The notes under the pieces are model-generated. The model was given only the letters and a program-made list of their open reading frames with translations. It ran no database searches and had not been told where the DNA came from. From positions 4,759 to 68,758 of the forward strand of contig CALIMJ010000006.1 in the NCBI GenBank assembly GCA_938028835.1: 64,000 nucleotides of DNA, written 5' to 3'. The translations under genes were made by a program, and so were the position numbers. How positions within the stretch are numbered: the first letter of the stretch is position 1; each line of letters starts with the position of its first letter. Source of the stretch: an uncultured bacterium (GTDB lineage: Bacteria; Sysuimicrobiota; Sysuimicrobiia; Sysuimicrobiales; Sysuimicrobiaceae). Of the stretch, positions 2,833 through 34,658 are shown one piece after another.

Positions 2833-3666
2833 CTACTGCCCTCCCGCGGCCGCGGCCACTTCCGCCCGCTCGCCCAGTAGGACGTGGTCCAGGGCGAACA
2901 GGGCGGCGCCGATGGCCCCGCAGAAGTGGGACTCCTCACTCACGTTCACGGGCACCCCGCTCATCTCCCCGATCAGGTGCACCATGGCCACGTTCCGGGC
3001 CACGCCGCCCGTGAAGGTGAGCTCGGGCTCGATCCCGACCCGCCGGAGCAGCGACAGGCTGCGCGAGGCGATGGAGGCGTGCACCCCCATCAGGATGTCC
3101 TCCACCTTGCGGCCCCTCGCCAGCCAGCCCAGGATCTCCGACTCCGCGAATACCGTGCAGGTGGTGGTAATGGTCACAGGGTTGCGGGCCGTCAAAGCCA
3201 GGGGCCCCAGCTCGCCCAGGGGGATCTCCAGGGCCGCGGAGGCCGCCCCCAGGAACCGGCCGGTGCCCGCAGAGCACTTGTCGTTCATGCAGAAGTCCAG
3301 CACCTCGCCGCCGGGCCCCACCCGGATGGCCTTGGTGTCCTGGCCGCCGATGTCCAGGACCGTGCGGGTGTTGGGGAACAGGAAGCAGGCTCCTCGCGCG
3401 TGGCAGCTGATCTCCGTCACCTGGGTGTCCCCGAACTCCACCTTGAAGCGGCCGTACCCGGTGCCCACGGTGTACTGCACGTCCTCGGCGGACAGCCCCG
3501 CTTCCTGGAGCGCGGCCTCGAAGGCGGCCCGCGCCGCCTCGTTCAACCGCGCGCCCGTGTCCACCAGGGCCCGGCCCAGGATCTCCCGCTCCGGGCTCAG
3601 GATCACCGCCTTGGTCTGGGTGGACCCCACGTCCACCCCCGCCACCACCTTCTTGGCACCCCACAT
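2833..3666 (-). CDS. BadF/BadG/BcrA/BcrD-type ATPase, paralog 2
   Basis: [37 protein letters not shown] and [12 protein letters not shown] motifs. ATG at 3666 lies after a GGAGGTGA RBS. 277 aa. The N-terminal part of the 591-aa ORF was discarded. Confidence 0.85.
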
Positions 3667-3674
3667 GTTCACGC

Positions 3675-4973
3675 TCACCTCCCCACTGCAGCCTTGTGCG
3701 CCGCCAGCGCTTCGAAGAAGGCGTCCACGCGGTTCTTGATCTGCGCGTCCGACCACAGCCTCGGGTCCACCAGGTCCGACTGGATGAACAGCCCCGGCAC
3801 GTTCCGCTGCACCCGCATCCACTCCCGCACGTCCGGCAGTCCCGTGCTGGTAGTCCGGCAGCTCTTCACCCCGTGGAAGCAGATGCCGTCCACCTTCCAG
3901 TCCCGCACCACCCGGTCCAGCCACTCCTGCTGGTAGAACATGGCTCCGGTCCAGCCCCAGTAGGTGGCCCGGACCATCTGCTCCGCGAAGCTCTCCAGGG
4001 GCCGGCCCAGGTCGTAGCCGAAGCCCGGCACGAAGCCCCCGCCCGCGAACACCATGTAGGTGCTGTGCACGAACACCCCGCCCCAGGAGCTGAACAGCTC
4101 CACGAACCGGCGGAAGTGGCTGTAGCAGGCGGTCCCCACCAGCACCAGCCGGAACCGCTCGTCCGGCACCGCCGCCATCCCCAGCCGCACCCGCTCCCGC
4201 ATCTCCTCCAGGGCCAGCTCGAAGTACCGGGTGCCCTCCGGGGTCCCCCGGTACAGGTTGGCGATGCCCTGGTAGGTGACCCCCTCCAGGGGCGCGTTGA
4301 AGGGAGCGGGGATGTGCCGGTTCGTGTCGCACACCGCGTGGTACAGCTCCGCCATGCGGTTGGCCTCCCGCAGGTGCTCCCGGAACCGGTCGATGTCGAA
4401 GGACTTCCCGGTGATCCGCTCGCACACCTCGATGAGCTCCCGCAGCTGGCCCAGGACGTAGCGACAGTCGTTCTCGAAGGTCTCCCGGAAGGCCTCCGTG
4501 CCCTCCCGCAACGACTCCCGGCCCCGCCAGCCGGGCAGGTCGAAGGTGAACACCGGACAGCCGTAGTAGTGCTCCCAGAACTCTGCCCACTTGAGGTACG
4601 TGTTGCACACGTTGTTGGTGACCACCAGGGCGGGCCGGGGGACCCGTCCGTAGGGGTGCTCCCCCTCCTTCAGCTGCACCCCCACGTCCGCCTTCACGTA
4701 CCCGCAGATGTCCGGGGAGAAGCCGTAGTCCTCCGCCAGCTGGATGTACGCCTGCGACTGGCCCCGGATGGCGGTCTGCAGGGAGGTGATCTCCGGCGCG
4801 TTGATGACGAAGTCAAAGGTCAGCAGCAGCTCGGAAAGCGGCGCCATCACGAACACGTAGGCGGTGGGGTGTCCGGTCTGGGCCGCCTCCGTCATCCGCT
4901 GCCACCACAGCTCCATCAGCCGCCGGCCCTCGCGCCGGCTGACCCCCAGGATCTCCTGCGCCGATGTACTCAC
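3675..4973 (-). CDS. 2-hydroxyacyl-CoA dehydratase / benzoyl-CoA reductase BcrB(BadE)-like subunit
   Basis: HgdB/BcrB family-like sequence (..CGYVKADVG.., ..[15 protein letters not shown].., ..[11 protein letters not shown]..). Start set at the GTG (VSTSAQEIL) about 10 nt after the upstream stop. An alternative ATG (MELWW) lies at about 4916. Confidence 0.7.
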
Positions 4974-4984
4974 ACCGCACCCCC

Positions 4985-6142
4985 TCACGCGAACTGGAAC
5001 AGCAAAGACTCCGCGAAGGTCTCCACTTCCATGCCCACCTGCTCGAACACCGTCATGGTCTCCTCGAACTCCATCACCAGGTGCGGGATCCCCGCACCAT
5101 CCAGGGCCCGGCTGTAGTGCACCTGCTCCTCCAGCCCCGGTTCGCACATCTTGGCCGCGGCCACGATGGCGGCCTCCGCCCCCGCCTCCCGGATGCGCCG
5201 CAGGAGCATCTCCGCCTTGGGCTTGCGGGGGTCCCGCTGCACCGGGCTGTAGCTGCTGCGGTTGAGGTAGCTGTCCGCCAGGTTCCGCCAGGGGTCACCG
5301 TCCAGGGGGACGTCCTCCGTGATCCACCGCAGCCCGATCATGAGGTCGTCGTCCACGATGTAGCAGGCGTTCTGGATCACCGCCAGCATGTCCAAGGGCG
5401 GCTGCTCGCAGAACCCGCCCTCGAACACCACCCGGATGCGGTCCTGCTTCTTGGCGGGCCGCTGCGGCAGGAGCTCCAGCACCCGTCGCAGCAGAACGTT
5501 GTGCTCCTCGCGGGGCATCAGCCCCGCGGAGCGCACCAGCAGGTAGCTCTCCACCGCGCTGAGCAGCCACGGGCTCTCCCGCTTGATCCGGTACACCTCC
5601 CGCAGCAGCCTGCGGTTCTCGTTGAACAGGGCGATGCTGGCCCGCAGGGCGTCCTCGGTGATGGGGCGGCCGCTCAGTTCCTCGATCACGCGGCCGATCC
5701 GGCGGTACTCCCCCACCAGGTAGTCCACCGCGTGGGCGCTGCTGGCGTTGTGGGGGTGGTAGAGGGTCTCCACCCGCATCTGGGGGAAGCTGCGCACCCA
5801 CACCCCGCAGCCGTTGCGGGCGGCGTCGCAGATGTTGGGCACCACCATGAGGCTCAGGAAGTCTAGCCGCCCCGACAGCGCCAGCTCCAGGGAGCTGCGG
5901 ACGATGGAGCACACGAAGGCGGCGATGCGGGCGTCCGCCTGCCGCACCTGGACCGTTCCGCCCGCGCCCGCGATCTTCACGGGCAGCAGGCCTGCCGCGT
6001 GGGCCACCTCCTCGGGGAAGAACACCTGGAAGTGCCCCACCACTTTGCCCTGGGGATTCGCCTCCAGCCACCGCCGCACCGCGGGAAACGACGGATCCTC
6101 CACCAGGGCCCTCAGGTCGTCGAAGATCCGCTCCAGCTCCAT
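4985..6142 (-). CDS. 2-hydroxyacyl-CoA dehydratase / benzoyl-CoA reductase BcrC(BadD)-like subunit
   Basis: 385 aa, HGD-D family-like (..VVPNICDAARNGCGVW.., ..AAKMCEPGLEE..). ATG lies 8 nt after an AGAGGGG RBS. Confidence 0.7.
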   Translation of the reverse strand: MELERIFDDLRALVEDPSFPAVRRWLEANPQGKVVGHFQVFFPEEVAHAAGLLPVKIAGAGGTVQVRQADARIAAFVCSIVRSSLELALSGRLDFLSLMVVPNICDAARNGCGVWVRSFPQMRVETLYHPHNASSAHAVDYLVGEYRRIGRVIEELSGRPITEDALRASIALFNENRRLLREVYRIKRESPWLLSAVESYLLVRSAGLMPREEHNVLLRRVLELLPQRPAKKQDRIRVVFEGGFCEQPPLDMLAVIQNACYIVDDDLMIGLRWITEDVPLDGDPWRNLADSYLNRSSYSPVQRDPRKPKAEMLLRRIREAGAEAAIVAAAKMCEPGLEEQVHYSRALDGAGIPHLVMEFEETMTVFEQVGMEVETFAESLLFQFA

Positions 6143-6216: not shown

Positions 6217-6939
6217 TCATCTTTCCTGATGCGATTGATCCACCAAAGCGTTGCGGGGGAACAGGCCCTCCTTCAGGGCCCGCGCCACCGCCTCGGCCCG
6301 GGTGTGGGCGCCCAGCTTGCGCATGAGGTTCTGCACGTGGTTGCGCACGGTAGCGGTAGACAGGAACAACGCCCGGGCGATGGCCTGGGTGTCCATCCCC
6401 TGAGCCAGCAGGCTCAGCACCTCCCGTTCCCTCCGGGTGAGGGGCTGGCTGGCGGCGGCCCCGGCGTCGAACCCCTCCCGCGCGGTGAGCAGGTCCACCA
6501 GCTCCTCGACCCGGCGCTGGTGGGAGATGTCCCGGAACAGGTGTACGACCCAGTACTCGTCCTCGTCCGGCCCGAACCGCACCACCAGGGTACTCTGGTT
6601 GACCCACACGTACCGGCCCTCCCGGCTCCGGTAGCAAACGTCCCGGGGCGGGATAGGTTCGCCCGTCCGCGCCATGACGAACTCCGGGCACCCAGGGCAG
6701 CACACCAGGTGCCCGGTGCGGTCGTGTCCGGTGACCACCCGGTAGCAGGGCCGGCCCAGCACGTCCTCCTTCCGCCAGCCCAAAAGCCGCTCCGCGGCCG
6801 TGTTCCACAGCACCACGCGCTGCCGACCGTCCACCACCATGACAGCTTCCCCGGCCCGCTCCAGCGCCTCCCGCAGGACCCGCACTGCGTCCGCGGTCAG
6901 CCGGCCTCCCGGTACGGCCTGTCCTCGCCCCACTCCCAT
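6217..6939 (-). CDS. PAS-domain sensor fused to LuxR/GerE-type HTH transcriptional regulator
   Basis: N-terminal PAS-like region (VVLWNTAAERLLGW...YVWVNQSTLVV). C-terminal LTRREREVLSLLAQGMDTQAIARALFLSTATVRNHVQNLMRKLG. The true start may be the internal Met at about 6840. Confidence 0.8.
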   Translation of the reverse strand: MGVGRGQAVPGGRLTADAVRVLREALERAGEAVMVVDGRQRVVLWNTAAERLLGWRKEDVLGRPCYRVVTGHDRTGHLVCCPGCPEFVMARTGEPIPPRDVCYRSREGRYVWVNQSTLVVRFGPDEDEYWVVHLFRDISHQRRVEELVDLLTAREGFDAGAAASQPLTRREREVLSLLAQGMDTQAIARALFLSTATVRNHVQNLMRKLGAHTRAEAVARALKEGLFPRNALVDQSHQER

Positions 6940-6955: not shown

Positions 6956-7723
6956 CTACCGGTGTTGCCAGGCGGGCTTGCGTTTTTCGAGAAACGCCCT
7001 CAGGCCCTCGTGAGCGTCCTCGGTTCGCATGAGCTCTTGCGCGTACACGTGTTCGACCTCCTGGAGCTCCTGGTAGAATACCCGCCGGAAGGACCCCAGG
7101 GCCGCGCGCTTGGCCAGGCGCAGTACCGCCGCGCTGTGGGCGCACAGCTGCTCGACGCGCCGGCGCACCGCCTGCTCGAGATCCTCCGCGGCCACCACGT
7201 CCGTGACCAGGCCCAGTTCGCGGGCCTGCCCTGCGGTCAGGACTTCCCCCGTGAGCACCGGGACCACCGCCTGCTTTCCCATCAGGGGAAGGAAAGCCGC
7301 CGCCGCCACGGGCGGGAACACTCCCACCCGAACCTCGGGCTGTCCGAAGGTCGCGCTTTCAGAGGCCACCACCACGTCGCACAGGGCAATCAGCTCGCAC
7401 CCTCCCCCCAGCGCCGCCCCGCCCACCCCGGCTACCGTGGGCACGTCCGAGTCCACGAGGGTACGGCACAAGGCGTGAAAGGCCTCCAGCATCTCGTGAA
7501 CCTTCTCCGCGGTGTGCTCCGCCACGTCCACCCCCGCGCAGAAGGATCGCCCCTCCGCGGTCAGGACCACAGCCCGCGCGGTGGGGTCCGCGAACGCCTC
7601 CCGGAGAATCCCCTCCAGCTCCCGCATCATCGCGATGGTGAGCACGTTGTGGGGCGGGCGGTTCAGGGTGACCCACCACGCCCCCTCCTCCCGCCGGACC
7701 CGTACCGCCTGATCCTGGTTCAC
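6956..7723 (-). CDS. Enoyl-CoA hydratase/isomerase (crotonase) family protein
   Basis: [15 protein letters not shown] and [25 protein letters not shown] crotonase signatures. GTG start overlaps the ACAD stop (GTGA). Confidence 0.8.
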
Positions 7724-8901
7724 CGCGCCACCTCCTGTCGGGCACTCTCCCGCACCACCTGCCGTCCCACCACCAGGGCCTGGATCTCCGAGGTCCCCTC
7801 GTAGATGCGCAGGGCCCTTACGTCCCGGTACAGGCGCTCGGCCGTGCTTCCCGCCACCACACCCCACGCCCCGTGCAGCTGGACCGCCTCGTCCACCACC
7901 CGCTGGGCGGCTTCCGTGGCGTACAGCTTGGCCATGGAGCTGTCCTGGGGCCCCCGGCCCGCGTCGCAGTCGTGGGCCCACGCGGCCCGGTACACCAGGA
8001 GCTCGCTGGCCTCCACCTCCGTGGCCATCCACGCCAGCTTCCACCGCGCCAGCTGGAAGTCCGACAGCGCCTGTCCGAAGGCCACCCGCTGCCGGCTGTG
8101 CCGCACCGCCTCGTCCAGGGCCCTGCGGGCAAAGCCCACCGCCGCGGCACCCACCGTGGCGCGGAAGGTGTCCAGGGTGCGCATGGCCACCGCATACCCC
8201 TCGCCCTCCTCCCCCAGGCGGTGCGTCGCCGGGACCCGGCAGCCGTCCAGGGTCAGGGTGCCGAGCGGGTGCGGGCTCAGGGTGCGGATGCGGCTGGACA
8301 CCCGCAACCCCTGCGCGTGGGCGTCCACCACGAAGGCCGTGAGGTCTTCCTTGCCAGGGCCGGTGCGCGCGAACACCACGTACTGGTGCGCCAGCCCGGC
8401 GTTGGAGATCCACGTCTTGGTGCCCACGAGCTCGTACCCATCCTGTACCCGGCGAGCCGCCGTCTGGATGGCGGCCACATCCGAACCCGCCTGCGGCTCC
8501 GACAGGGCAAAGGCCGCGATGCGCTCGCCCCGGGCCACCGCGGGCAGGTAGCGGGCCCGGAGCTCCTCACTCCCAAACAGGGCGATGGGCAAGCTGCCGA
8601 GCCCCTGCATGGCGAACGCGAAGTCCGCAAGCCCGCTGTGGTACGCCAGGATCTCCCGGGCCAGGCACAGGCTGCGCACGTCCACCCGGGCGTGCACGCC
8701 TCCGTACGCGGCGGGCACACAGTACCGCAGCCAGCCAGCCTCTCCGAGTCTGCGCACCAGCTCCCGTGCCACCCCGTCGGGGTCGAGCTCCTCCCGCTCC
8801 GCCAGGCCCCCGAGCTCCCGGGCGGCCCACGCGCGCAGGTCCTCCGCCAGCGCCCGGTGGTGGGCGTCGAAGAAGGGCCAGCGCAGGGGGTACAGGTCCA
8901 C
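7720..8901 (-). CDS. Acyl-CoA dehydrogenase
   Basis: 393 aa with ..[10 protein letters not shown].., ..QLHGAWGVV.. and ..IYEGTSEIQ.. ACAD motifs. Confidence 0.9.
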
Positions 8902-8903: not shown

Positions 8904-9743
8904 CTAGTCCCCCCGGAACTCAGGCGGGCGGCGCTGGACGAAGGCTTCGTAACCGCGGGCGAAATCCTGTGTCAGCATGCACAGCGCCTGCGCCTGGGCC
9001 TCCGACTCCACCGCCTCGTCCAGGGACATGTCCCACTCCTTGTGGAGCATCCGCTTGGTGATGGCGTGGGCGAAGGTGGGCCCCCTGGCCAGCTGGCGGG
9101 CCAGCTCCTGGGCCTCCTGCAGCAGCGTCTCCGGAGGGCACAGGCGGTTGAAGAACCCCCACCGCTCCGCCTCCTCGCCCGACATCTCGCGGCCCGTGTA
9201 CAGCAGCTCCGCGGCCCGGCCCAGCCCGACGATCCGGGGCAGCAGGGCGCAGGCGCCCATGTCGGAGCCCGCAAGCCCCACCCGGTTGAACAGGAAGGCC
9301 AAGCGGCTGCGGGCGGTGCCCAGCCGGAGGTCGCACGCCGCGGCCACCACCGCACCCGCACCCACGCACACCCCGTCCACCGCCGCCACCAGGGGCTGTG
9401 GGCAGTGCCGCATGGCCACCACCAGCTCCCCCGTCATCCGTGTGAAGGCCAGCTTGCGCCGGACATCCATGTCCAGGAGGGGCCGGATGATCTCGTGCAC
9501 GTCCCCGCCGGAGCAGAAGTTGCCGCCAGCACCGGTGATCACCACCACCTTCACGTCCTCCACCCGCCGCAGCAACTCGAAGGTGTCCCGCAGCTCCGCG
9601 TAGCTCTCGAAGGTGAAGGGGTTCTTGCGCTCCGGACGGTTGAAGGTGAGGGTGGCCACCCCGTCCTGGAGGTACCACAGGAAGTGTCGAAGCCGGATGT
9701 CCGACCCGCGCATGATCCCTCCCTGCGCCACGGCCTCAACCAC
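8904..9743 (-). CDS. Enoyl-CoA hydratase/isomerase family protein
   Basis: [17 protein letters not shown] and [27 protein letters not shown] motifs. 279 aa. Confidence 0.85.
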
Positions 9744-11286
9744 CCCCCGCCCGCCCCCGCTCCCGCTCCGCCAGCACCCGCCGCAGGATCTTGCCGACCG
9801 CGGACTTGGGCAACTCGTCCACGAACTCCACCTCGCGCACCCGCTTGTAGGGGGCCACCCGCTCCCCCACGAACCGCAGCAGCTCCTCCAGGCTCACCGG
9901 CGCCCTGCGGACCACGAACGCCTTGGGTACCTCCCCCAGTTCGGGGTCGGGCCGGGGGACCACGCAGGCTTCACGCACCGCGGGGTGTTGACGCAGGACC
10001 TCCTCCAGCTCCGCGGGCGCGATGGAGTAGCCCTTGTACTTGATCATTTCCTTGCGGCGGTCCACCCACCACAGGTAGCCGTCCCCGTCGAACCGCACCA
10101 GGTCTCCCGTGCGGAACCAGCCGTCCGCGAACGCCTCCTGGTTGGCCTGCGGGTTGTTCCAGTAGCCCACGGTGACCATCGGCCCCCGCACCAGCAGCTC
10201 CCCCACTTCTCCCGCCTCCAGGTCCCGACCGGTCTCCGGATCCACCACCCGCTGGTCCAGTCCCGGCACCGGAGGTCCCACCGAACCCCGTTTGATCTTC
10301 ATGGGCGGGACCGCGATGTTCATCGGTCCCGCCGTCTCCGTCATGCCGATGTGCTCGGTGGCGGGGCAGCCGAAAACTTCCTCCGCCCGGCGGGCCAGCT
10401 CCGCGTCCAGGGGCAGGGCCGCGGTGTTCAGGAACCGCAGCCCGCGGTAGGCAAACCCCGTCCGCTCCGCGGCCTCCACCAGCTCCCACAGGGCTGGAGG
10501 CACGGCGAACAGCTCCCGAACCCGGTGCGTCTCCATCAGCCGCAACACCTCCACGGCGTCAAACCGTGGGACCAGCACCTGGCAGGCGCCCAGGCACACC
10601 CCGGCATTCAGCAGGGCCAGCAGGCCCGCGCAGTGGCACAGGGGCAGGAAGTGTACGTAGCGGGAGCGTTCCGTGATGAAGCCCACCGCCCGCCCGGCCA
10701 TCAGGTCCGCCACCACGTTGCGGTGGGTGAGGGCCGCGCCCTTGGGAAGGCCCGTGGTGCCGCTGGAGTACAGGATGCAGGCCAGGTCGTGCTGTGGGTC
10801 CAGGACCACGGGTTCGGGCTGCTGCCAGGGCTCTGCGGCTTCCTCCAGCTCGTCCAGGCTCAGCACGTAGCGCAGGGAAGAAGCCACGCCGGCCTCCCGC
10901 AGCTGGCCGACCCACTCCTTCGAGGCCAGGACCATCTGGGCTCCGGTGTCCAGCAGGCACCGCTGCACCTCCGGGAGCTTGCTGAGGGGGCTCAGAGGTA
11001 CCACAACCCCGCCCGCCCGGAGGACCCCGTAAAAGCCCAGGGGGACCTGCGGGCACGTGGGCGACAGGAACACCACGCGGTCGCCCTTCTCCAGCCCCAG
11101 CTCCTGCAGGGCCCGGGCCACCCTTCCGCTGGTGTCCCACAGCTGCCCGTAGGTGGTCACCCGCTCGGTAGGCCCCCACACCAGGACAGGCCGGTTCGGC
11201 TCCGACCGTGCCCACCGCTCCAGCAGCTGGCAGGAGGTCAGCTTGGGGACCGCCAGAGGATGCGCCGTGGGGTGACGGAACACCAA
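9736..11286 (-). CDS. AMP-dependent acyl/aryl-CoA synthetase (candidate 4-hydroxybenzoate/benzoate-CoA ligase)
   Basis: [15 protein letters not shown]-binding motif, GMTE, and the [15 protein letters not shown] hinge. 516 aa. Confidence 0.85.
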
Positions 11287-11345: not shown

Positions 11346-12347
11346 CTAGGAGGCCAGCGCTTCCAGAGCGCGGCGTACGTGGACGGGTGCCGTGCGCCTG
11401 CGATACAGGACCGTGAAGTCGGTGTTGTCCATGGGGTGCACGGCCCGGTGCACGGCCTGGCTCACCTGCTCCAAGACCTCTCCCTCCAGCCGCCGTCCGA
11501 CCACCAGGGACGCGGCTTCCTCCAGCACGAGGGGCCGGGAGGCAACCCCTCCCAGCACCAGCCGGCAGGACGCCACGGTCCCGTCCGGGTCCTGCCGCAC
11601 GGCTGCCGCCACACCCAGGGCCGCGAAGTCCAACGAACCCCGCCGCCGCACCTTGCGGTAGGTGCTGCGCAGCCCGTCCGCGGGCGGGAGCAGGACCTCC
11701 ACCACCAGCTCATCAGGCGACTTGTCCAGGTAGCGGATGCCGTCGTCCCGGTACAGGTCCTCCAGGGGCAGGACGCGCTCCCCTCGAGCGCCCACCAGCC
11801 GCACCTTCGCGCCCAGCGCGATCAGCGCCGGGGCCCCGTCGCCCGCGCTCACCGCCCAGCACCGCCCGCCGCCCGGCGCCACGCGGCACGGTACTTCCTG
11901 CGGGCTGTGGGGCCCGGGTGCCTTCATGCACCAGCCCACGGCCTCGCGCCAGTGCTCCGTCTGGTCGTAGTAGTTGCAGCGCGTGTCCAGGCACAGGTTC
12001 CCGCCCAACGTGCCCATGCGGTGCAAAATGGGGTTGGAGCACACCGCGACCGCTTGCGCCAGCGCACGGTAGGCGGAGCGCACCGCGGGCTGCGCGGCCA
12101 CCTCCGCCAGGGTGCACCCGGCGCGCAGCACCAGGCCCTGTTCCGGACTCCCGGACCAGCCCCGCAGCTCCCGCAGCCCGCGCAGGCTCACCAGGTACCG
12201 GGGCTGCAGCTGGCGGCGTTTCATCTTCGGGAGCAGGTCGGTGCCGCCCGCCAGCGGCGCCGCCTCCGGGCCCAGCTCCGCCAGCATGCGCGTGGCCTCC
12301 GCCACCGTGGCGGGCCGGAGCAACTGAAAAGCGGGCAGGCGCAGCAT
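11346..12347 (-). CDS. Molybdopterin dehydrogenase FAD-binding subunit (CoxM/HcrB-like) with Cys-rich insertion
   Basis: AGGTDLL FAD motif. Inserted loop CLDTRCNYYDQTEHWREAVGWCMKAPGPHSPQEVPCRVAPGGGRC, with Cys spacing 16/14/9. Confidence 0.8.
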   Translation of the reverse strand: MLRLPAFQLLRPATVAEATRMLAELGPEAAPLAGGTDLLPKMKRRQLQPRYLVSLRGLRELRGWSGSPEQGLVLRAGCTLAEVAAQPAVRSAYRALAQAVAVCSNPILHRMGTLGGNLCLDTRCNYYDQTEHWREAVGWCMKAPGPHSPQEVPCRVAPGGGRCWAVSAGDGAPALIALGAKVRLVGARGERVLPLEDLYRDDGIRYLDKSPDELVVEVLLPPADGLRSTYRKVRRRGSLDFAALGVAAAVRQDPDGTVASCRLVLGGVASRPLVLEEAASLVVGRRLEGEVLEQVSQAVHRAVHPMDNTDFTVLYRRRTAPVHVRRALEALAS

Positions 12348-12357
12348 CGGGCTCCCC

Positions 12358-14766
12358 CTATGCGGGCTGCGCCGCCTCCTCCCAGCTCTGGGGGCGGGGG
12401 ACCCGCTCCGGGGGCGGGAAGGAGAACGGCGGCACCTTGGTCGGGCCCACGCGGCCCGTCCGGCCCTTGCGCTGTTCCTCCAAAGCCTTGAGCACCCTCT
12501 CGGGCGTGGCGGGAACTTCGTCCACCCGCACCTTCAGGGCGTCCGCGATGGCGTTGAGGATGGCGGGCACCACGCACAGCAAAGGACCCTGGCCCACCTC
12601 CTTAGCGCTGAAGGGGGCCCGGGGTTCCTCCGTCTCGACCAGGAAGGTGATCACCTCCGGCATCTCGTACACGGTGGGCACCTTGTAGTCCAGCCAGGAC
12701 GGACCCCGGTGCAGCTCCTTGCGGAAGGCCTGCTCCTCCATCAGGGCCTCGCCCAGGGCCATGTGCACGCTGCCCTCCACCTGGCCCTCCACCAGCACCG
12801 GGTTGAGGGCCCGGCCGATGTCGTGGGCCACCCATACCCGCTCCACCTTCACCTCTCCGGTCTCGGGGTCCGCCTGCACCTCCGCCACGCACGCGGAGAA
12901 GGTGTAGGCGGGCGAGGGCCCCACCCCGGAGCCTTTGTACGTCCCCAGCTTCTGCGGGGGCCGGTAGCTGCCGGAGGTGGCCAGGCACCCGAACCTGGCC
13001 TCGGCCCACTGTGCCGCCTGGGCGAAAGAGCCACCGACTTGCGGGTTCGCCTCATCGAAGATTCGCCGGGACCGCGCCACCAGCCGGCTCCGGGGCACCT
13101 GCAGGCGTTCGGCCACCGCCTCGAACAGCAGGTCCCGCACCCGACAGGCGGCCTCATACGCCGCGTTGCCCACCATGAGCGTCACCCGGCTGCTGTAGCT
13201 GCCGAGGTCGATGGGAGTGAGGTCCGTGTCGGAGGTCACCAGGCTTACGTCCTGGGGCTGCAGTCCCAAAACCTCCGCCACGATGGTGGCCACCGCGGTG
13301 GCCGAGCCCTGCCCGATCTCCGTGGCCATGGTGTACACGGTCACCCCGCCCGAGCGGTCCACCCGCAGGTGAACCTCGGAGTGGGGCATGTCGCTGTAGT
13401 AGATGGAGCCGCCCGCGCCCGTGAGGTAGGCGCTGCACGCAAACCCCAGCCCCCGCCCGTAGGGCAGCCGGCCCCGACGCTCGTGCCACCCGCTGGCCTC
13501 CACCACCTTCTCGATGCACGCCCGCAGCCCGTTGCTGGTGATCTCCAGCCAGTTCACCGTGAGCTCGTTGGGCCCCGTGAGGTTGCGCAGCCGCAGCTCC
13601 ACGGGGTCCAGGCCCAGCTCCTCGCTCAGCTTGTCCAGGTGCACTTCCAGGGCGCAGCGGGCCTGCGGGGTGCCGTGGCCGCGCTTGGGGCCGCACGGCG
13701 GCTTGTTGGTGAACACCCGGACGGCCTGGAACCGGTAGTGGGGAATCCGGTAGGTGACCGGCTGCTGCGTGCCGGCGTAGAGCATGGTGGCGGGGCCGAA
13801 GGAGCAGTACGCCCCACCGTCCAGATAGGCCTCCACGTGCATGGCGGTGATGCGGCCGTCCCGCTTCACCCCCGTCCGGATCCGCAGCAGCTCCGGGTGC
13901 CGGCCCCGGTGCGCGTAGAACACCTCCTCCCTCGTGAGGGTGATCTTCACCGGCCGGCCCGTGAGCATGCTGAGCTTGGCAGCACACACCTCGTGGTGGA
14001 AGATGTCCAGCTTGCCGCCGAACCCCCCGCCTACTGCGGGTACCACCACCCGCACCTGGTGCTCCTCCAGGCCCAGGGCCTTCGCCAGTCCCCGGTGCAG
14101 GTAGTGGGGGCCCTGGTGGGACGTCCACAGGGTGAGCTTCCGCGCCCCGGGGTCCCACCAGGCCAGGGCGCTGTGCGGCTCCAGGGGCGCGTGGGTGCTG
14201 CCCTCGTAGAAGAACAGGTCCTCCCGCACGTGGTCGGCTTCCGCGAAACCCACCTCCACGTCGCCGAACTCCAACGAGGCCAGCCGGTGGACGTTGCCAA
14301 ACGGCCCGTACTCGTGGATGCGGGGCTCCGGGTTCCGCAGGGCCTCCTCCAGGTCCATGCGGGCCGGCAGCGGTTCGTACTCCACCTCCACCAGCCGGGC
14401 GGCCTCCTCCGCGGTGTACGGATCCACCGCCGCCAGGGCGGCCACCGGCTCGCCCACGTAGCGCACCTTGTCCACCGCCAGCGCGGTCTCGTCCTGCCCC
14501 ACGGGGAACACGCTGTAGCGGACCGGGACGTCCCGGCCCGTGATGGCCGCCACCACCCCGGGAAGCTGCAGGGCCCGCTCCAGCCTGACCGACACCAGCT
14601 TGGCGTGCGCGTGCGTGCTGCGCACCAGCTTGCCGAACAGCATGCCCGGAAGGCTGAGGTCGTCGGTGTACTGGGCGCGGCCGGAGACCTTGGCCCAGCC
14701 GTCCACCCGCGGCAGGCGCTGGCCCACCACGTTCCACACGCGTTCCCGCTCCTTCAGGACCCGCAT
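12358..14766 (-). CDS. Xanthine-oxidase-family molybdopterin-binding large subunit (HcrA/CoxL-like)
   Basis: 802 aa starting MRVLKERERVWNVVGQ. Ald_Xan_dh family-like throughout. The N-terminal 122 codons of the 924-aa ORF are rejected. Confidence 0.85.
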   Translation of the reverse strand: MRVLKERERVWNVVGQRLPRVDGWAKVSGRAQYTDDLSLPGMLFGKLVRSTHAHAKLVSVRLERALQLPGVVAAITGRDVPVRYSVFPVGQDETALAVDKVRYVGEPVAALAAVDPYTAEEAARLVEVEYEPLPARMDLEEALRNPEPRIHEYGPFGNVHRLASLEFGDVEVGFAEADHVREDLFFYEGSTHAPLEPHSALAWWDPGARKLTLWTSHQGPHYLHRGLAKALGLEEHQVRVVVPAVGGGFGGKLDIFHHEVCAAKLSMLTGRPVKITLTREEVFYAHRGRHPELLRIRTGVKRDGRITAMHVEAYLDGGAYCSFGPATMLYAGTQQPVTYRIPHYRFQAVRVFTNKPPCGPKRGHGTPQARCALEVHLDKLSEELGLDPVELRLRNLTGPNELTVNWLEITSNGLRACIEKVVEASGWHERRGRLPYGRGLGFACSAYLTGAGGSIYYSDMPHSEVHLRVDRSGGVTVYTMATEIGQGSATAVATIVAEVLGLQPQDVSLVTSDTDLTPIDLGSYSSRVTLMVGNAAYEAACRVRDLLFEAVAERLQVPRSRLVARSRRIFDEANPQVGGSFAQAAQWAEARFGCLATSGSYRPPQKLGTYKGSGVGPSPAYTFSACVAEVQADPETGEVKVERVWVAHDIGRALNPVLVEGQVEGSVHMALGEALMEEQAFRKELHRGPSWLDYKVPTVYEMPEVITFLVETEEPRAPFSAKEVGQGPLLCVVPAILNAIADALKVRVDEVPATPERVLKALEEQRKGRTGRVGPTKVPPFSFPPPERVPRPQSWEEAAQPA

Positions 14767-15251
14767 CCCGATGGCCTCCCCGTCTCGCGAAGCCGCCGCG
14801 CCGCGGCCTGCACCGCCTCCAGGATCTTCACGTAGCCGGTGCAACGGCAGAACACCCCCGCCACCGCCTCCCGCACCTGCTCGCCCGACGGCTCGGGGAC
14901 ACGGTCCAGCAGCGCCTTGGTGACCAGCACCATGGCGGGGGTACAGTAGCCACACTGCAGGGCGCCACTGTCCACGAAGGCCTGTTGCACCGGGTGCAGC
15001 TGACCGTCCGTAGCAAGCCCCTCCACGGTGGTGACCTCGTGGCCTTCGAGCTCTTGGGCCAGGAGCAGGCAGGACAGCGCAGGCTCCCCGTCCACCAGTA
15101 CCGTGCAGATCCCGCACTCCCCCAGCTCGCACCCGTGTTTGGTCCCCACTAGCCCCAGGTCCTCCCGCAGCACCTCCAGGAGCGTGCGGTGGGGCGGCAC
15201 CAGCACCCGGTGCTCCTGCCCGTTCACCCTGAGCCGGACCACACGCTCCAT
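14754..15251 (-). CDS. (2Fe-2S)-binding small subunit (HcrC/CoxS-like)
   Basis: CELGECGICTV ferredoxin-type motif plus CGYCTPAMV...CRCTGY second cluster motif. 165 aa. Overlaps the large-subunit start by 13 nt. Confidence 0.9.
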   Translation of the reverse strand: MERVVRLRVNGQEHRVLVPPHRTLLEVLREDLGLVGTKHGCELGECGICTVLVDGEPALSCLLLAQELEGHEVTTVEGLATDGQLHPVQQAFVDSGALQCGYCTPAMVLVTKALLDRVPEPSGEQVREAVAGVFCRCTGYVKILEAVQAAARRLRETGRPSGCGS

Positions 15252-15337: not shown

Positions 15338-16741
15338 CTAGGTCCTACGTCCGACGGAGGGCAGGAAGTCCTCCAGGCGCACCCGGTCCCAGCCCATGGG
15401 CTTCAACCGCTGAAACGGCTTTCGCGCGTCCTCCCCCGCGCACAGGGGCGGCTTGGTGGCGTCGATGAGGAGCTTGCCGCCCACCCGGTTCCAGTACGGG
15501 CCGCCGGGTGGTATCAGCTCCCGCGCGGACGGGTCCATGGGGTGCACCCGCACGCCGGGGATCACCACTACGTCTGTCTCGGGGTTGCAGCGGGTATTGA
15601 CGGCCCACAGGACCTCCCAGGGCTGGTAGGGGTCCACGTCCTCGTCCACCGCGATGGCGACCTTGGGGTGTAGCACGGGACTGCTGACCACGCCCAGGAG
15701 CACCTGCTTGGCCTCACCCCAGAAGCGCGGCGTCATCTGGACCACCACCCCGAAGATTCCGGGCAGCACCACCACGTTGTGCAGCTCCACGTGGCCCGCA
15801 ATGCTCCGGATGTGGTTGTAGATGGCCGCCGCCAGCGGCACCTTGTGGAACACACAGCCCTCGACCTCCGACCCGTTCTGCACCGCCTTGTAGATGGCGT
15901 CCTGCCGCAGGGTGATGCAGTCCACCTCCACCACGGGGTTATGCCCCATCCCCGCCACGTAGTAGTCGTGGAACTCGGAAAACGGTCCTTCCGGCTCCCG
16001 CACGTGGGGCAGGACCTTCCCCTCCAGCACGATCTCCGCGTCCGCGGGGACTTCCAGGTCGTTGGTCTCGCACCGGACCACCTGGACCGGCTCGCCCAGC
16101 AAGCCGCCCGCCAGCTCCAGCTCGTCCATCTCGAAGGGCCCGCTGGTGGCAGCGGCCATGTAGTGCAGCGGGTGGTGGCCGATGTAGATGGCCACGGGCA
16201 TCGCCTCGCCCGCGGCCTCGTACGCGTCGTAGATGCGTCGGGTGTGCCGTGGGACCATGAGGATCCCCAGCTTGCGGGGGCCCTTCACCTGCAGGCGGTG
16301 GAAAGCGACGTTGCGCTTGCCCGTGGCCGGATCGCGGCAGACTACCAGACCCGAGGCGATGTAGGGCGGTTCCTCGCTCCCGTTGACGTGCACGGGCAGC
16401 CGGGTCACGTCCGCCTCCGTGCCCTTCCACACCACCTCCTTCACCGGGCCGGAGGCCACCCGCTGCGTAGGGACCCGCCGCTGGGACCGCTCGGCCGCGG
16501 TGGGGGTCAGGCGCTGCAGGGTAGTGCCGTACGCCAGCGCCGCGTGACGCAGGTTCGCGGGCGCCATGCCCAGGCTGCGCCATCCCGGGTAGCCCACCAG
16601 GTTCTCGAACAGCAGGGCTTTCTCCCGGGATTGGTACAGCAGAGCTCCCATCTCCGTGCGGGGATCCACCGGGCTGCGCACCCGCACCAGTTCCCCGACG
16701 TCTTCCAGCTGGGCGATCCACGTGCGCATGTCCGCCGGCAT
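15338..16741 (-). CDS. UbiD-family (de)carboxylase (4-hydroxybenzoate decarboxylase / phenylphosphate carboxylase-like)
   Basis: 467 aa, UbiD-like throughout, with the C-terminal LLIDATKP motif. Confidence 0.9.
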   Translation of the reverse strand: MPADMRTWIAQLEDVGELVRVRSPVDPRTEMGALLYQSREKALLFENLVGYPGWRSLGMAPANLRHAALAYGTTLQRLTPTAAERSQRRVPTQRVASGPVKEVVWKGTEADVTRLPVHVNGSEEPPYIASGLVVCRDPATGKRNVAFHRLQVKGPRKLGILMVPRHTRRIYDAYEAAGEAMPVAIYIGHHPLHYMAAATSGPFEMDELELAGGLLGEPVQVVRCETNDLEVPADAEIVLEGKVLPHVREPEGPFSEFHDYYVAGMGHNPVVEVDCITLRQDAIYKAVQNGSEVEGCVFHKVPLAAAIYNHIRSIAGHVELHNVVVLPGIFGVVVQMTPRFWGEAKQVLLGVVSSPVLHPKVAIAVDEDVDPYQPWEVLWAVNTRCNPETDVVVIPGVRVHPMDPSARELIPPGGPYWNRVGGKLLIDATKPPLCAGEDARKPFQRLKPMGWDRVRLEDFLPSVGRRT

Positions 16742-16748
16742 GGCCGCC

Positions 16749-16886
16749 CTACCGCAGGACCTCCGCCCACTTGGCCAGCACCCGCTCCCGCACCTCGGGG
16801 CTGGAGGCGGCCACGGGCGGGAACCGGTCCTTCCACTCGAAGGGACGGGTGGCGTCGATCACCGCGCGGGAGTTGAACCGTTCTGC
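16749..16886 (-). pseudogene. C-terminal fragment of a second UbiD-family gene, truncated at the insertion-sequence boundary
   Basis: Translation VAERFNSRAVIDATRPFEWKDRFPPVAASSPEVRERVLAKWAEVLR* matches UbiD C-termini (IDAT motif). There is no start codon. The frame is closed by TGA exactly where TnpB-derived sequence begins. Confidence 0.5.
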
Positions 16887-16899
16887 AACTCATGGTCAT

Positions 16900-17427: not shown

Positions 17428-17488
17428 GGCTGCCGCCAGGCGGTGATGTAGCTGATGCCCTCGAGACGAGCTCAGTCTGAAAGTTTCA

Positions 17489-18589
17489 TCAGTAATAAAC
17501 GATCACAAAGACGGGGCCAGCTGTCACCCCCCGCGCCTCCAACTGCGGGTCCTCCCGGATGTCCCGCGGGTCGGCCACCGGGTAGCCCAGGATCCCCCGG
17601 CGCAGGGCCTCGTGGGTGAACTCCGCCTTGGTCCGCTCCGCCAGGAACGCCGCGATGGCCTCCTCCAGCCGATCGATCTCCTCCTGGGTCGCGGTGACCA
17701 CGTCGAAGGCCTCCCAGTCGCGGCCCCGCAACGCCTCCGGCAACGCCCCACACTCCTCCATCCAGCGCACCAGGGCCGCGTTGGAGTGGCGGCCCGCCTC
17801 CCCGGAGTACAGGATGAAGTTGATGTACCCGTCCCGGCACCGGTACACGGCCCGCACCCGCGCGCCGTGCACGTTGCGGCCCACCATGGCGTTGCCGGCC
17901 CGGCGCAGGTCCCTCCCGAACAGGCTGTAGTACGCGGGCGCGTTGGCCAGGGCGCTCAGCAGGCTGGCCTGAACGGACACGTCCACCAGCTGGCCGCGTC
18001 CGGTCCGCTGGCGGTACAGGTGCGCTACCAGGGCACCCGCGGCCGCGTACAGGCTTCCCCACAGGGGCGCCTGCGGCAACGACACCCGCAACGGCGAGCC
18101 GTCAGGCCTTCCGACCAGCTGCATGAGCCCGCTGGCCGCCATCACCACGAGGTCCGGACCTCGCCACCCGCTGCGGGGACCCGTGCGCCCGAAGGGCGTG
18201 AGGGACACCCACACCACCCGCGGGTTGCTCTCCCGCAGCTGCGGGTAGCCGACACCCAGCTCCTCCAGGAAGCCCGGCGGGTAGGACTCCACCACGAAGT
18301 CCGCGCGCGCCACGAGGCGCGCGAAAAGCTCCCGCCCCCGGGGATCCTCCAACGCCAGGGTGATGCCCCGCTTGTTGGCGTTGTACGCAAGCCACGGGAG
18401 GCTGCGCTCCGGGTGGGGTTCGTCACGGTAAAAAGGACCCCGCCACCGGCCCGGGTCCCCGCCCGGGGGCTCCACCTTCACCACGTCCGCGCCCAGGTCT
18501 CCCAGCAGCCGGCCGCAGAACCAGCCGGCCTCGTCCGTGAGGTCCAGCACCCGGTAGCTGGCCAGCAGGCTGGAGGCTTCCCTCACCAC
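17489..18589 (-). CDS. Family III CoA-transferase (CaiB/BaiF/Frc-like), possibly 3'-altered
   Basis: N-terminal YRVLDLTDEAGWFCGRLLGDLGADVVKVEPPGG is the family III signature. Approximately 366 aa from the GTG, which is short for this family. The last codons (VFVIVYY*) are AT-rich and adjoin the IS remnant. Confidence 0.7.
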   Translation of the reverse strand: MVREASSLLASYRVLDLTDEAGWFCGRLLGDLGADVVKVEPPGGDPGRWRGPFYRDEPHPERSLPWLAYNANKRGITLALEDPRGRELFARLVARADFVVESYPPGFLEELGVGYPQLRESNPRVVWVSLTPFGRTGPRSGWRGPDLVVMAASGLMQLVGRPDGSPLRVSLPQAPLWGSLYAAAGALVAHLYRQRTGRGQLVDVSVQASLLSALANAPAYYSLFGRDLRRAGNAMVGRNVHGARVRAVYRCRDGYINFILYSGEAGRHSNAALVRWMEECGALPEALRGRDWEAFDVVTATQEEIDRLEEAIAAFLAERTKAEFTHEALRRGILGYPVADPRDIREDPQLEARGVTAGPVFVIVYY

Positions 18590-19338
18590 GGAGATCCTAC
18601 CTTCCTCCGCCGGGACAGCCTCTGCACGCGCTCCGCGAAGTACGCCAGGTGCTCCCGCATGAGGGACCGGGCGCGCTCTGAGTCTCGGGCCTGCACCGCG
18701 TCCAGGATGGCCTGGTGATCCTCTACCGCTCGCGCGGCCATGGCGTCGTCGGGCAGCAGGCGCGCCAGCACCTCGTGGAACAGGGCACGGAAGGAGGCCA
18801 GGGCGGCCACCAGCACGGGGTTCCCGGAGGCCTCCGCCAGCGCCGTGTGGAACCCCACGCTGTGGGGGATGAAGTAAGGGTCGCCGCGCTGCCGCCCCGC
18901 ACGGGCCTGCTCCACCGCCGCGCGCATGGCCTCCAGGTCCCTGGGCCGCGCCCGCTGTGCGGCCAGGGCGGCCACCTCCGGCTCCAGGAGCAGCCGGGCC
19001 TCCGCCAGCGCCCGCAGCGACGCCCGGTTCACCCGCAGGAGGTTCGCCAGCGACTCCGTGACGTGCCGCGGCTCGGGCACCGACACGAACACCCCACCCC
19101 TGGCACCGACGCGGATCCGCACGAAGCCCTCGGACTCCAGGATCCGCAGGGCGTCGCGGATGGTCACCCGGCTGAGCCCGAACTGCCGGGCCAGCTCCTT
19201 CTCCGACGGCAGCCGCTGCCCGCTGCGGAGCTGGCCCCTCAGGACCATCTCCTTGATGTGCCGGACCACCGCGTCCGAGGCGCGCACGGGGCGGGGCGGT
19301 TCGACCGGAGTGCGGACGAGGGGTTCCGCTTGCGCCAT
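18583..19338 (-). CDS. GntR-family transcriptional regulator (FadR-type C-terminal domain)
   Basis: LPSEKELARQFGLSRVTIRDALRILESEGFV winged HTH. Start taken at the internal ATG (MAQAEP) rather than the 5' extension. No obvious RBS, so possibly leaderless. Confidence 0.7.
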   Translation of the reverse strand: MAQAEPLVRTPVEPPRPVRASDAVVRHIKEMVLRGQLRSGQRLPSEKELARQFGLSRVTIRDALRILESEGFVRIRVGARGGVFVSVPEPRHVTESLANLLRVNRASLRALAEARLLLEPEVAALAAQRARPRDLEAMRAAVEQARAGRQRGDPYFIPHSVGFHTALAEASGNPVLVAALASFRALFHEVLARLLPDDAMAARAVEDHQAILDAVQARDSERARSLMREHLAYFAERVQRLSRRRKVGSPW

Positions 19339-19473
19339 GGCAAAGGTAATATCGTTCAGATCTCCACCGCCCACCATCGGTCGCGCAGCCGACTTCCTCG
19401 GGTGCGGGCCCGATGTCGTTGACACCCCAGGGCACAGCGCCCATCATGGGGCCGACTGCTGCAGGAGGGTGGG

Positions 19474-20067
19474 ATGGAGGGCGAGGGAAGCCGGCGGCTG
19501 GTGGTGGCCATCACGGGGGCCAGCGGGGCCATCCGGGGGATCCGGCTGCTGGAGGCGGCACGGGAGCTGGGGCTGGAGAACCACCTGGTGGTAAGCGAAT
19601 GGGCGGAGCGTACCATCCCGCACGAGACGGACTACCGCGTGGAGGACGTCCTCGGGCTCGCCAGCGTGGTGCACCGCCGCGACGACCAGGCCGCGGTCAT
19701 CTCCAGCGGCTCGTTTCCCACCCGGGGGATGGCGGTGGTACCGTGCAGCATGAAGACCCTGGCAGCCATGGCCTGCGGGTTCGCGGACGACCTCATCCAC
19801 CGGGCTGCGGACGTCACCCTGAAGGAACGGCGCAGGCTGGTCCTGGTGCCGCGCGAGGCACCCCTGAGCAGCATCCACCTAAAAAATATGCTGAAGCTGT
19901 CCAACCTGGGCGCGGTGATCCTGCCGCCGGTGCCCGCCTTCTACACCCACCCGCGCAGTCTGGACGAGGTGGTGGACCACGTGGTGGCGCGGGTCCTGGA
20001 CCAGTTCGGGTGGAGCTGGAGCCGCGCCCGGCGCTGGGACGGGCGCATGCAACGGAGCCCGGACTGA
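19474..20067 (+). CDS. ubiX: Flavin prenyltransferase UbiX (prFMN synthase)
   Basis: LVVAITGASGA flavoprotein motif, PCSMKTLAAMA, ILPPVPAFY. 197 aa. Confidence 0.9.
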   Translation: MEGEGSRRLVVAITGASGAIRGIRLLEAARELGLENHLVVSEWAERTIPHETDYRVEDVLGLASVVHRRDDQAAVISSGSFPTRGMAVVPCSMKTLAAMACGFADDLIHRAADVTLKERRRLVLVPREAPLSSIHLKNMLKLSNLGAVILPPVPAFYTHPRSLDEVVDHVVARVLDQFGWSWSRARRWDGRMQRSPD

Positions 20068-22343: not shown

Positions 22344-22394
22344 CCGCGCACCAGGCCGCCCTCAGCTCCTCGCGGACTGACCGGGTCCGCAGGG

Positions 22395-23591: not shown

Positions 23592-23596
23592 GAACC

Positions 23597-26862: not shown

Positions 26863-28375
<1,513 letters not shown>

Positions 28376-28386
<11 letters not shown>

Positions 28387-34407: not shown

Positions 34408-34658
34408 CACGGGGTCGGCACCTCCTCCCGCTCGTACACCTCGTAGTCCTCGATGAGCGGGTTGGTGAGGAACCGCTCGCACAGCTCCCGCACCCGCTCC
34501 CGCCACCTTTCCTCGGGCACCGTCAGCTCGAACGCCTTGCCCACCCGGACCTCAGACGCCTCCAGGCCCAGGGCCCGCAGGCCCGTCTGGACCGCCTGTC
34601 CCTGCGCGTCCAGCACACCCGGCTTCAGGAACACCACCACCCGCACGCGCTTGTTCAC
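34407..34658 (-). CDS. purS: Phosphoribosylformylglycinamidine synthase subunit PurS
   Basis: 83 aa ([20 protein letters not shown]...). GTG overlaps the purC stop (GTGA). Confidence 0.8.

Follow-up and report, generated by a model that had tools for sequence, protein, structure and literature searches.

To our knowledge, the reductive dehydroxylation of phenols by enzymes that belong to the xanthine oxidase (XO) family is known only for 4-hydroxybenzoyl-coenzyme A (CoA) reductase, hereafter 4-HBCR, and for Ucd. The canonical clade of 4-HBCR, which includes HbaBCD, is typified by HcrCAB of Thauera aromatica (PDB 1RM6/1SB3), for which an inverted electron flow has been described. Ucd (UcdCFO/UcdhABC), the urolithin C 9-dehydroxylase of Enterocloster, is the family's second described reductive dehydroxylase, a Mo/FAD/2Fe-2S enzyme (FAD, flavin adenine dinucleotide) which removes a phenolic hydroxyl group para to an electron-withdrawing carbonyl and whose closest characterized relative is 4-HBCR (bioRxiv 10.1101/2025.01.17.632430; PMC11760930). 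The FAD subunit of Ucd has no [4Fe-4S] loop and its electron donor is reduced nicotinamide adenine dinucleotide, NADH (PMC11760930). The mechanism of dehydroxylation is unsettled, with Birch-type one-electron and two-electron routes both proposed (bioRxiv 10.1101/2025.01.17.632430). Here we describe a three-gene locus at positions 11346-15251 of a 64,000-nucleotide stretch of DNA (termed the window; positions 4,759 to 68,758 of contig CALIMJ010000006.1, from an uncultured bacterium of the Sysuimicrobiota), whose product is most like 4-HBCR, carries Gln in place of the catalytic Glu of the family, and shares its gene string with a CoA ligase and, further on, a class I aryl-CoA ring reductase. 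Ucd, which has ~33% identity with 4-HBCR and acts on a substrate that is no CoA ester, is likened to this enzyme by description only.

A Three-Subunit Enzyme Most Like 4-HBCR

The locus is fully occupied by three co-directional genes on the minus strand. They encode a small, HcrC-like subunit of 165 amino acids (aa) at 14754..15251 (Pfam Fer2 and Fer2_2), a large, HcrA-like molybdopterin subunit of 802 aa at 12358..14766 (Ald_Xan_dh_C, MoCoBD_1 and MoCoBD_2) and an HcrB-like FAD subunit of 333 aa at 11346..12347 (FAD_binding_5 and CO_deh_flav_C). The Pfam domains of all three score far above the gathering scores, which places them in the xanthine oxidase or Mo-hydroxylase family, and the small subunit shows the full complement of eight Cys in its two [2Fe-2S] motifs. 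The mechanical open reading frame (ORF) of the large subunit extends to 15132; its start is the ATG at 14766, which overlaps the small-subunit gene by 13 nucleotides (nt), and the resulting length of 802 aa is the same in relatives. A sequence-only reading of this DNA had noted the gene order small (2Fe-2S), large (Mo) and FAD, as in hcrCAB, and this order is borne out by the ORFs and their Pfam domains. Taken together, the three genes are most like those of a Mo(molybdopterin cytosine dinucleotide)-FAD-[2Fe-2S]x2-[4Fe-4S] enzyme of the 4-HBCR type, predicted to be cytoplasmic. The G+C content of the window is ~71%.

Among solved structures, the large subunit matches HcrA (1rm6_A) with 605 bits, the next structure reaching 309, and the FAD subunit matches 1rm6_B with 188 bits, the next reaching 93; the small subunit matches 1rm6_C with 167 bits, barely ahead of other family members. 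The likeness to the Thauera enzyme covers the three subunits and the order small-large-FAD, the HcrB loop with its four [4Fe-4S] Cys ligands in register, and the PPCG..RGHG and AKE motifs and Gln214 of HcrA, the last of which corresponds to Gln216 of the window large subunit; canonical 4-HBCR likewise shares the genomic link to genes for a class I aryl-CoA reductase and for a CoA ligase. The window enzyme differs from the canonical clade in having Gln for Glu726, NKPPCGPKRGHG where the latter has NTPPCGA[MQ]RGHG, and a longer sub-loop between the second and third Cys of the FAD-subunit loop. We do not place it among the orthologs of canonical 4-HBCR, and the comparisons put it in a sister radiation. 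The annotation of the Joint Genome Institute (JGI) labels homologs as 4-hydroxybenzoyl-CoA reductase, so that the resemblance as such is not new.

Glutamine at the Molybdenum Site

Residue 726 of the large subunit, encoded by the codon CAG at 12589..12591 (minus strand), is a Gln at the position of HcrA E726, CoxL E763 and, by homology, bovine XO E1261. In hydroxylases of the family this Glu (bovine E1261, CoxL E763) activates the Mo-OH group, and by analogy a role for it in dehydroxylation has been put forward (PMC10420851). The exchange of Glu for Gln takes away this activator, which argues against an ordinary hydroxylase, and with Gln at the Mo site the handling of protons there must differ from that in Thauera. 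A candidate substitute for the missing residue is Glu723, the Glu of the AKE motif, which is common to HcrA-like enzymes and is replaced by Gly (AKG) elsewhere in the family. At the position of VAYRCSFR in CoxL, the window has the HcrA-type sequence NKPPCGPKRGHG and Thauera has NTPPCGAMRGHG, where other family members have RG[FY]G at the position of PPCG..RGHG. The CSF of GGAYCSFG (residues 317-324) was considered as an equivalent of CoxL AYRCSFR and rejected, since the alignment places the CoxL loop at NKPPCGPKRGHG and the C and F are lineage-specific variants of GGAYGSYG.

Gln occupies position 726 in all 119 of the nearest homologs (59-92% identity) and is a clade character, not a sequence error. 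Among representatives of clusters at 50% identity, Gln is limited to the clusters closest to the window; those that come next have NKPxCGPKRGHG in common with them, yet retain Glu. A scan for the Gln motif with one genome per GTDB species gave at least 592 confirmed relatives of this Gln clade (the Q-clade), hosted mainly by Acidobacteriota (Pyrinomonadaceae, Blastocatellia and Thermoanaerobaculia), Gemmatimonadota, Methylomirabilota/Rokubacteria and Chloroflexota, with a few archaeal metagenome-assembled genomes (MAGs). Active-site segments are nearly identical across these phyla (STQTPHY, GGAYGSYG, NKPPCGPKRGHG and AKE[VA]GQGP), whereas the lineage of the window has SHQGPHY and GGAYCSFG for the first two, four active-site-proximal substitutions in all. 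Such a departure from a near-invariant clade consensus beside the active-site Gln would be expected if the enzyme had been recruited to a new substrate. Among the nearest sister clusters that keep Glu (P0362, P0366, P0369 and P0375) are proteins of 934-951 aa whose match to the window large subunit begins at about residue 170, which suggests that in them a [2Fe-2S] subunit is fused to the large subunit.

Neighborhoods of the Q-clade were compared at 80 species-level loci of the at least 592, with flanks within 10 kb. AMP-ligases (AMP, adenosine monophosphate) adjoin the enzyme at several Methylomirabilota/Rokubacteria loci, and sets resembling benzoyl-CoA reductase (BCR) adjoin it in MAGs labeled Acidimicrobiia (L020) and Nitrososphaerales (L050). 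A PaaA/PaaB/PaaC/PaaD-type aryl-CoA oxygenase set stands beside the Gln-type enzyme at L007 (13452-16041), L009 (6747-9266), L014, L065 and L072, and the flanks of these loci showed no PaaE reductase gene; a functional link of the Q-clade with aerobic aryl-CoA pathways is possible. At L005 and L006, Q-clade genes occur alone with TetR, MFS and XdhC genes. Because of the contexts with AMP-ligase, Paa and BCR genes, a CoA-thioester substrate is a reasonable generalization for the whole clade, and a link with ring reduction is not. Pairs of enoyl-CoA hydratase and acyl-CoA dehydrogenase genes near the clade at ~10 Pyrinomonadaceae/Blastocatellia loci were set aside as independent support, being from a single lineage and, at L025, lying ~3 kb off with unrelated genes between.

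Two Q-clade loci have features of their own. At L050 (2618-13463), a Q-clade HcrCAB-like operon (57% identity) lies 3 kb from a four-gene BCR/Hgd-like set; its archaeal placement would be unexpected if the binning is right, and could be a binning error. At L008 (12421-12893), the large- and FAD-subunit genes of a Q-clade operon are separated by an inserted HicB/HicA antitoxin-toxin pair.

Four-Cysteine Loop of the FAD Subunit

The loop of the FAD subunit (11859..11993, minus strand) reads GGNLC119LDTRC124-NYYDQTEHWREAVGW-C140-MKAPGPHSPQEVP-C154-RVAPGGGR-C163, precisely the pattern CLDTRC-N15-C-N13-C-N8-C given in the sequence-only reading, and C124, C140, C154 and C163 are the predicted [4Fe-4S] ligands. 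In phmmer alignments with solved structures, the FAD subunits of CoxM/CutM and of nicotinate dehydrogenase align in two pieces that leave out residues ~120-168, in keeping with the claim that the loop is an insertion without counterpart in ordinary CoxM-type proteins; HcrB (1rm6_B, 2e-54), PaoB (5g5g_B) and 5y6q_B align in a single piece across the region. In the alignment to 1rm6_B, the window C124/C140/C154/C163 land, ligand for ligand, on HcrB C122/C138/C146/C155. These are reported to be the four [4Fe-4S] ligands (Unciuleac et al. 2004), and the numbers derived from the alignment match them exactly. The Cys of Thauera HcrB are spaced by 15/7/8 intervening residues, which agrees with the 16/8/9 of the sequence-only reading in another way of counting, and the window loop differs only by being six residues longer between its second and third Cys, a sub-loop whose length among homologs runs from 7 to ~45 residues.

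Among the 120 nearest database homologs plus Thauera, the four Cys are conserved in 122/122, 122/122, 122/122 and 121/122 sequences, the lone exception being the last Cys, and all four are kept in each of the 81 FAD subunits whose genes adjoin those of related large subunits elsewhere. The loop segment used alone as a query retrieves 1rm6_B (63 bits) and 5y6q_B. As far as sequence comparison goes, the Cys pattern is confirmed as real and not due to chance.

The FAD subunits of PaoABC of E. coli (5G5G) and of the Methylobacillus aldehyde oxidase (5Y6Q) likewise align through the loop, and PaoB reportedly binds a [4Fe-4S] cluster at this position (Correia et al. 2016). Both differ from the window enzyme in being oxidative aldehyde oxidoreductases, with large subunits that score 209 and 192 bits where HcrA scores 605, and PaoABC is periplasmic. 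The proposal that the loop is a signature of reductive chemistry has to be given up, since it spans PaoB and 5y6q_B as well and is universal in a clade whose members mostly have no ring reductase nearby. Because the whole Q-clade keeps the loop, mostly with no ring reductase nearby, the loop alone is not diagnostic of reductive dehydroxylation.

From CoA Ligase to Ring Reductase

Downstream of the three genes and on the same minus strand, an AMP-forming acyl-CoA ligase of 516 aa (9736..11286; Pfam AMP-binding) starts 59 nt after the stop of the FAD-subunit gene. It is followed by an enoyl-CoA hydratase family protein, ECH1 (8904..9743; Pfam ECH_1; PRK08258 461, above its cut-off of 330), and by an acyl-CoA dehydrogenase (7720..8901) with the N, M and C domains of Pfam Acyl-CoA_dh, whose NCBIfam matches stay below cut-off throughout, among them cyclohexane-1-carbonyl-CoA dehydrogenase and glutaryl-CoA dehydrogenase. 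A second enoyl-CoA hydratase of 255 aa, ECH2 (6956..7723, with GTG at 7723), has the cyclohexa-1,5-dienecarbonyl-CoA hydratase model TIGR03189 as its best match (172, below the cut-off of 292). Next comes a PAS + LuxR/GerE-type regulator of 240 aa (6217..6939), judged from its translation and from relatives in which the corresponding gene carries PAS and GerE.

The segment 2027-6142 then holds a complete four-subunit set of a class I ATP-dependent reductase in the order CBAD, made of two HGD-D-type proteins and two different BcrAD_BadFG ATPases. Its BcrC/MbdN-like subunit (4985..6142) matches MbdN (9g87_B) with 423 bits and scores 314 against a cut-off of 421 with TIGR02263, and its BcrB/MbdO-like subunit (3675..4970, start approximate) matches MbdO (9g87_A) with 392 bits and scores 216 against 487 with TIGR02260. 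The BcrA-type ATPase subunit (2833..3666) scores 258 with TIGR00241, above cut-off, and 210 and 198 with BcrA and BzdQ; the BcrD-type subunit (2027..2830) scores 203, also above cut-off, and 139 with BcrD. The closest solved relative of the reductase is 3-methylbenzoyl-CoA reductase (9G87), and all four subunits fall below the Bcr and Bzd equivalog cut-offs. Further along the minus strand lie an Amidohydrolase_2-family protein (1122..2000), which has no NCBIfam match and is assigned from its translation and from the syntenic gene of L001 with Pfam Amidohydro_2, and a BadH-like short-chain dehydrogenase/reductase (SDR; 327..1082), best matched by the 2-hydroxycyclohexanecarboxyl-CoA dehydrogenase model TIGR03206 (301, below the cut-off of 431).

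The string small-large-FAD-ligase-ECH-acyl-CoA dehydrogenase-ECH-regulator-BcrC/B/A/D-like-amidohydrolase is conserved in relatives at 74-97% identity, among them L001, an Armatimonadota MAG (75% for the FAD subunit), L003 and L004 (94%) and L010 (97%). MAGs labeled Armatimonadota are the nearest relatives of the ~71% G+C host. As read from these genes, the operon belongs to an anaerobic aryl-CoA pathway that includes a class I ring reductase, and the locus represents a complete-looking pathway of this kind outside Proteobacteria. One variation among the relatives concerns an SDR: a gene for a 261-aa SDR lies between CoA ligase and ECH1 in L003 (12607-13400) and also in L004, and has no counterpart in the window at 9722-9743, where the ligase and ECH1 genes overlap, so that the only SDR of the cluster is the one at 327-1082.

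Reductive Dehydroxylation or a Different Reaction?

The most likely function of the enzyme is reductive dehydroxylation, and we give about even chances to the specific proposal of an aryl-CoA reductive dehydroxylase that feeds the adjacent ring reductase. In such a pathway an aromatic acid, possibly made or trimmed beforehand by the adjacent UbiD/UbiX decarboxylase, would be activated as a CoA thioester by the ligase whose gene starts 59 nt downstream. Low-potential electrons, probably derived from ferredoxin, would enter through the surface [4Fe-4S] cluster on the loop of the FAD subunit and reach Mo by way of FAD and the two [2Fe-2S] clusters; at Mo, a ring hydroxyl para to the thioester would be taken off. 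The resulting (substituted) benzoyl-CoA would be dearomatized by the class I ATP-dependent aryl-CoA reductase of the same string, and the hydratases, the acyl-CoA dehydrogenase and the SDR would carry the dearomatized product further. The cofactor motifs, the conserved loop ligands and the operon linkage to ligase and class I reductase can already be seen in the sequence. The sequence-only reading had preferred a reductive dehydroxylase to a CO or xanthine dehydrogenase; the exclusion of the latter two stands, whereas the reductive function rests on the genomic context and not, as had been thought, on the Cys loop.

A number of observations weigh against reductive dehydroxylation. Identity to the Thauera subunits by BLAST is 40% for the large, 37% for the FAD and 51% for the small subunit, and the 4-HBCR models stay below their cut-offs: the large subunit scores 830.4 with TIGR03194 (equivalog cut-off 994.55) and the FAD subunit 298.7 with TIGR03195 (404.55), in both cases still the best NCBIfam model, and the small subunit scores 177.8 with TIGR03193 (257.8), which ranks third, narrowly behind the glyceraldehyde dehydrogenase gamma and XdhC models. 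In a neighbor-joining tree of 148 representatives, a distance tree without bootstrap or other support values, the window falls within a Gln clade that is monophyletic, with Thauera HcrA joining no earlier than at a 23-member node. Alignments with HcrA, two CO dehydrogenases and 6-hydroxypseudooxynicotine dehydrogenase put Gln in place of the catalytic Glu of the family (motif AKEVGQGP), and all 119 canonical HcrA sequences retrieved with Thauera HcrA (75-94% identity, many of them named 4-HBCR alpha by NCBI) have AKE[AS]SEG with Glu; the loss of Glu726 could equally mean a different reaction. The best PDB matches of the ligase are FadD-1 and 4-coumarate-CoA ligases (255-259 bits), ahead of benzoate-CoA ligases (157-178), and it scores 230 with the benzoate-CoA ligase family model TIGR02262 (cut-off 375), so that by these scores it is 4CL/FadD-like and outside the benzoate/4-hydroxybenzoate-CoA ligase family. 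Since the ligase is nearer to the 4-coumarate/FadD than to the benzoate type, the substrate may not be 4-hydroxybenzoate itself, and the true substrate of the enzyme may be an analog of 4-hydroxybenzoyl-CoA rather than that compound. BCR-like genes were found within 10 kb at only 3 of the 80 Q-clade loci, and the loci free of ring reductases come largely from Acidobacteriota, Gemmatimonadota and other lineages. The AlphaFold2 model of the FAD subunit confirms the fold, with 1rm6_B as its top match and a predicted local distance difference test (pLDDT) score of 81, but the loop scores only 54-68, a confidence too low to judge the geometry of the [4Fe-4S] cluster. Genes for ferredoxin, 2-oxoglutarate:ferredoxin oxidoreductase, XdhC or MocA were not found in the annotated parts of the window, and a search for them in the 20-64 kb part turned up housekeeping genes only.

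The same architecture might instead act on a CoA thioester of the pathway in a different reaction, such as another oxygen-atom abstraction, a non-canonical hydroxylation or an alicyclic or heteroaromatic acyl-CoA redox step, an explanation that we consider rather unlikely. The clade-wide Gln speaks for it, given that canonical 4-HBCR always has Glu, as do the PaaABCD-type genes and the AMP-ligases without BCR beside other members of the clade and the substitutions next to the active-site Gln in the window lineage. However, we know of no characterized XO-family enzyme with such chemistry that is closer than 4-HBCR, the succession of ligase, enzyme and ring reductase fits dehydroxylation most simply, and the loss of the Glu base disfavors classical hydroxylation (PMC10420851). 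It is also conceivable, and we consider it unlikely, that the enzyme performs some general function of the Q-clade of Acidobacteriota, Gemmatimonadota and other phyla, and that its adjacency to aromatic-CoA genes is incidental. The matches in at least 592 species-representative genomes, the 77 of 80 loci without BCR-like genes within 10 kb and the almost identical active-site segments across phyla would suit such a function, but they do not account for the tight co-directional packing of the locus, with its 13-nt overlap of small- and large-subunit genes and its 59-nt gap to the ligase, nor for the conservation of the whole string in relatives down to 74% FAD-subunit identity, the four active-site-proximal departures from the consensus in the window lineage, or the BCR-like genes adjacent to the enzyme in two further MAGs of different phyla.

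A 2-furoyl-CoA dehydrogenase (HmfABC) of a furoate/furandicarboxylate pathway is also an XO-family enzyme which acts on an aromatic acyl-CoA and is encoded with UbiD/UbiX, CoA ligase and hydratase. UbiX, AMP-ligase and ECH genes are present here too, and the best structures for the UbiD neighbor are of HmfF type (6H6X/6H6V, 241 bits; 35% identity to HmfF of a Cupriavidus plasmid). For comparison we used the hmfFG-ABCDE-type cluster of the Cupriavidus oxalaticus plasmid, presumably hmf by its synteny with the cluster reported by Koopman et al. 2010. The large subunit has 32% identity with HmfA (296 bits) against 40% with HcrA (567 bits), HmfB is a protein of 271 aa with two Cys and without the loop (28%, 47 bits), the comparison cluster has the order large-FAD-small, and a furoate pathway has no use for a class I ring reductase. 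A furoyl-CoA dehydrogenase was rejected on the HmfA identity, the loop-less HmfB and the gene order, and we regard it as very improbable; a literature search found no paper linking this enzyme with 4-HBCR. General family membership is all that links the window enzyme with aerobic CO dehydrogenases or xanthine/purine dehydrogenases, and both readings can practically be dismissed on account of the HcrA-type loop, the best structure matches to 4-HBCR and the aryl-CoA operon. The active-site motif VAYRCSFR, proposed as a check for CoxL, is not present in the large subunit, where AYRCSFR aligns to the HcrA-type NKPPCGPKRGHG; the catalytic Glu is absent; and the equivalog models for CoxL and xanthine dehydrogenase give scores under 50% of those of the 4-HBCR models and well short of their own cut-offs (TIGR02416, 309 vs. 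991). Among the annotated genes of the window, no cox accessory genes were identified.

Reductive dehydroxylation is the reading which we carry forward. The members of the Q-clade form a separate, very widespread clade in which Gln replaces the catalytic Glu, and in the literature searched we found no description of this clade, nor of such clusters in Armatimonadota. We tentatively suggest, as a possibility short of a probable one, that they represent a widespread XO-family class (at least 592 species-representative genomes) which has kept the [4Fe-4S] loop and exchanged Glu for Gln, with a Mo chemistry distinct both from classical hydroxylation and from that of canonical 4-HBCR, and which in the window lineage has been recruited, with the four active-site-proximal substitutions, into the ATP-dependent aryl-CoA dearomatization of a bacterium with high G+C content and a probable relationship to Armatimonadota. 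A natural relative with the electron-input [4Fe-4S] loop and without the Glu of the Mo site is a ready test of the role of this Glu in the reductive direction. Since the clade is labeled 4-HBCR by annotation pipelines and mostly has no ring reductase nearby, anaerobic degradation of aromatic compounds may be over-called in metagenomes.

Upstream Genes and the Remainder of the Window

Directly upstream of the small-subunit gene lies the UbiD-family (de)carboxylase (15338..16741, minus strand; Pfam UbiD_N/UbiD/UbiD_C). It is followed on the minus strand by a family III CoA-transferase (17489..18700, start approximate; Pfam CoA_transf_3, 253 bits) and a GntR/FCD-type regulator (18583..19425, start uncertain; Pfam GntR and FCD), and on the plus strand by the flavin prenyltransferase UbiX (19474..20067; TIGR00421 260, above cut-off), which makes the cofactor of UbiD. 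The module of UbiD, CoA-transferase, GntR/FCD regulator and UbiX recalls the routes with CoA-transferase and UbiD/UbiX for aromatic dicarboxylates such as phthalates; the match of this UbiD to phthaloyl-CoA decarboxylase is only 64 bits.

Between UbiD and the CoA-transferase (16742-17488), an ORF at 16900-17202 on the minus strand encodes a remnant of 100 aa which, by eye, resembles the C terminus, with its zinc ribbon, of an IS605-family TnpB. The nucleotide match to L003, the relative with 94% identity, ends at window position 16879, and in L003 three further UbiD paralogs and a PNPOx-like gene separate the CoA-transferase from the UbiD that the window retains, so that the window has probably lost ~5 kb at that point.

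Just outside the aromatic cluster, at 22344-26263 on the plus strand, two adjacent signaling proteins have GGDEF-type motifs as judged from translation only, one being membrane-bound and the other having GAF/PAS-like regions and an EAL-like C-terminus. A purine biosynthesis cluster follows at 26863-39625, with PurH-like protein, parts of FGAM synthase, adenylosuccinate lyase, adenylosuccinate synthetase and GAR synthetase, and the remainder of the window to 64 kb holds housekeeping genes for TyrRS, PheRS alpha and beta, MutS2, PolX, IF3 and MlaE/MlaD.

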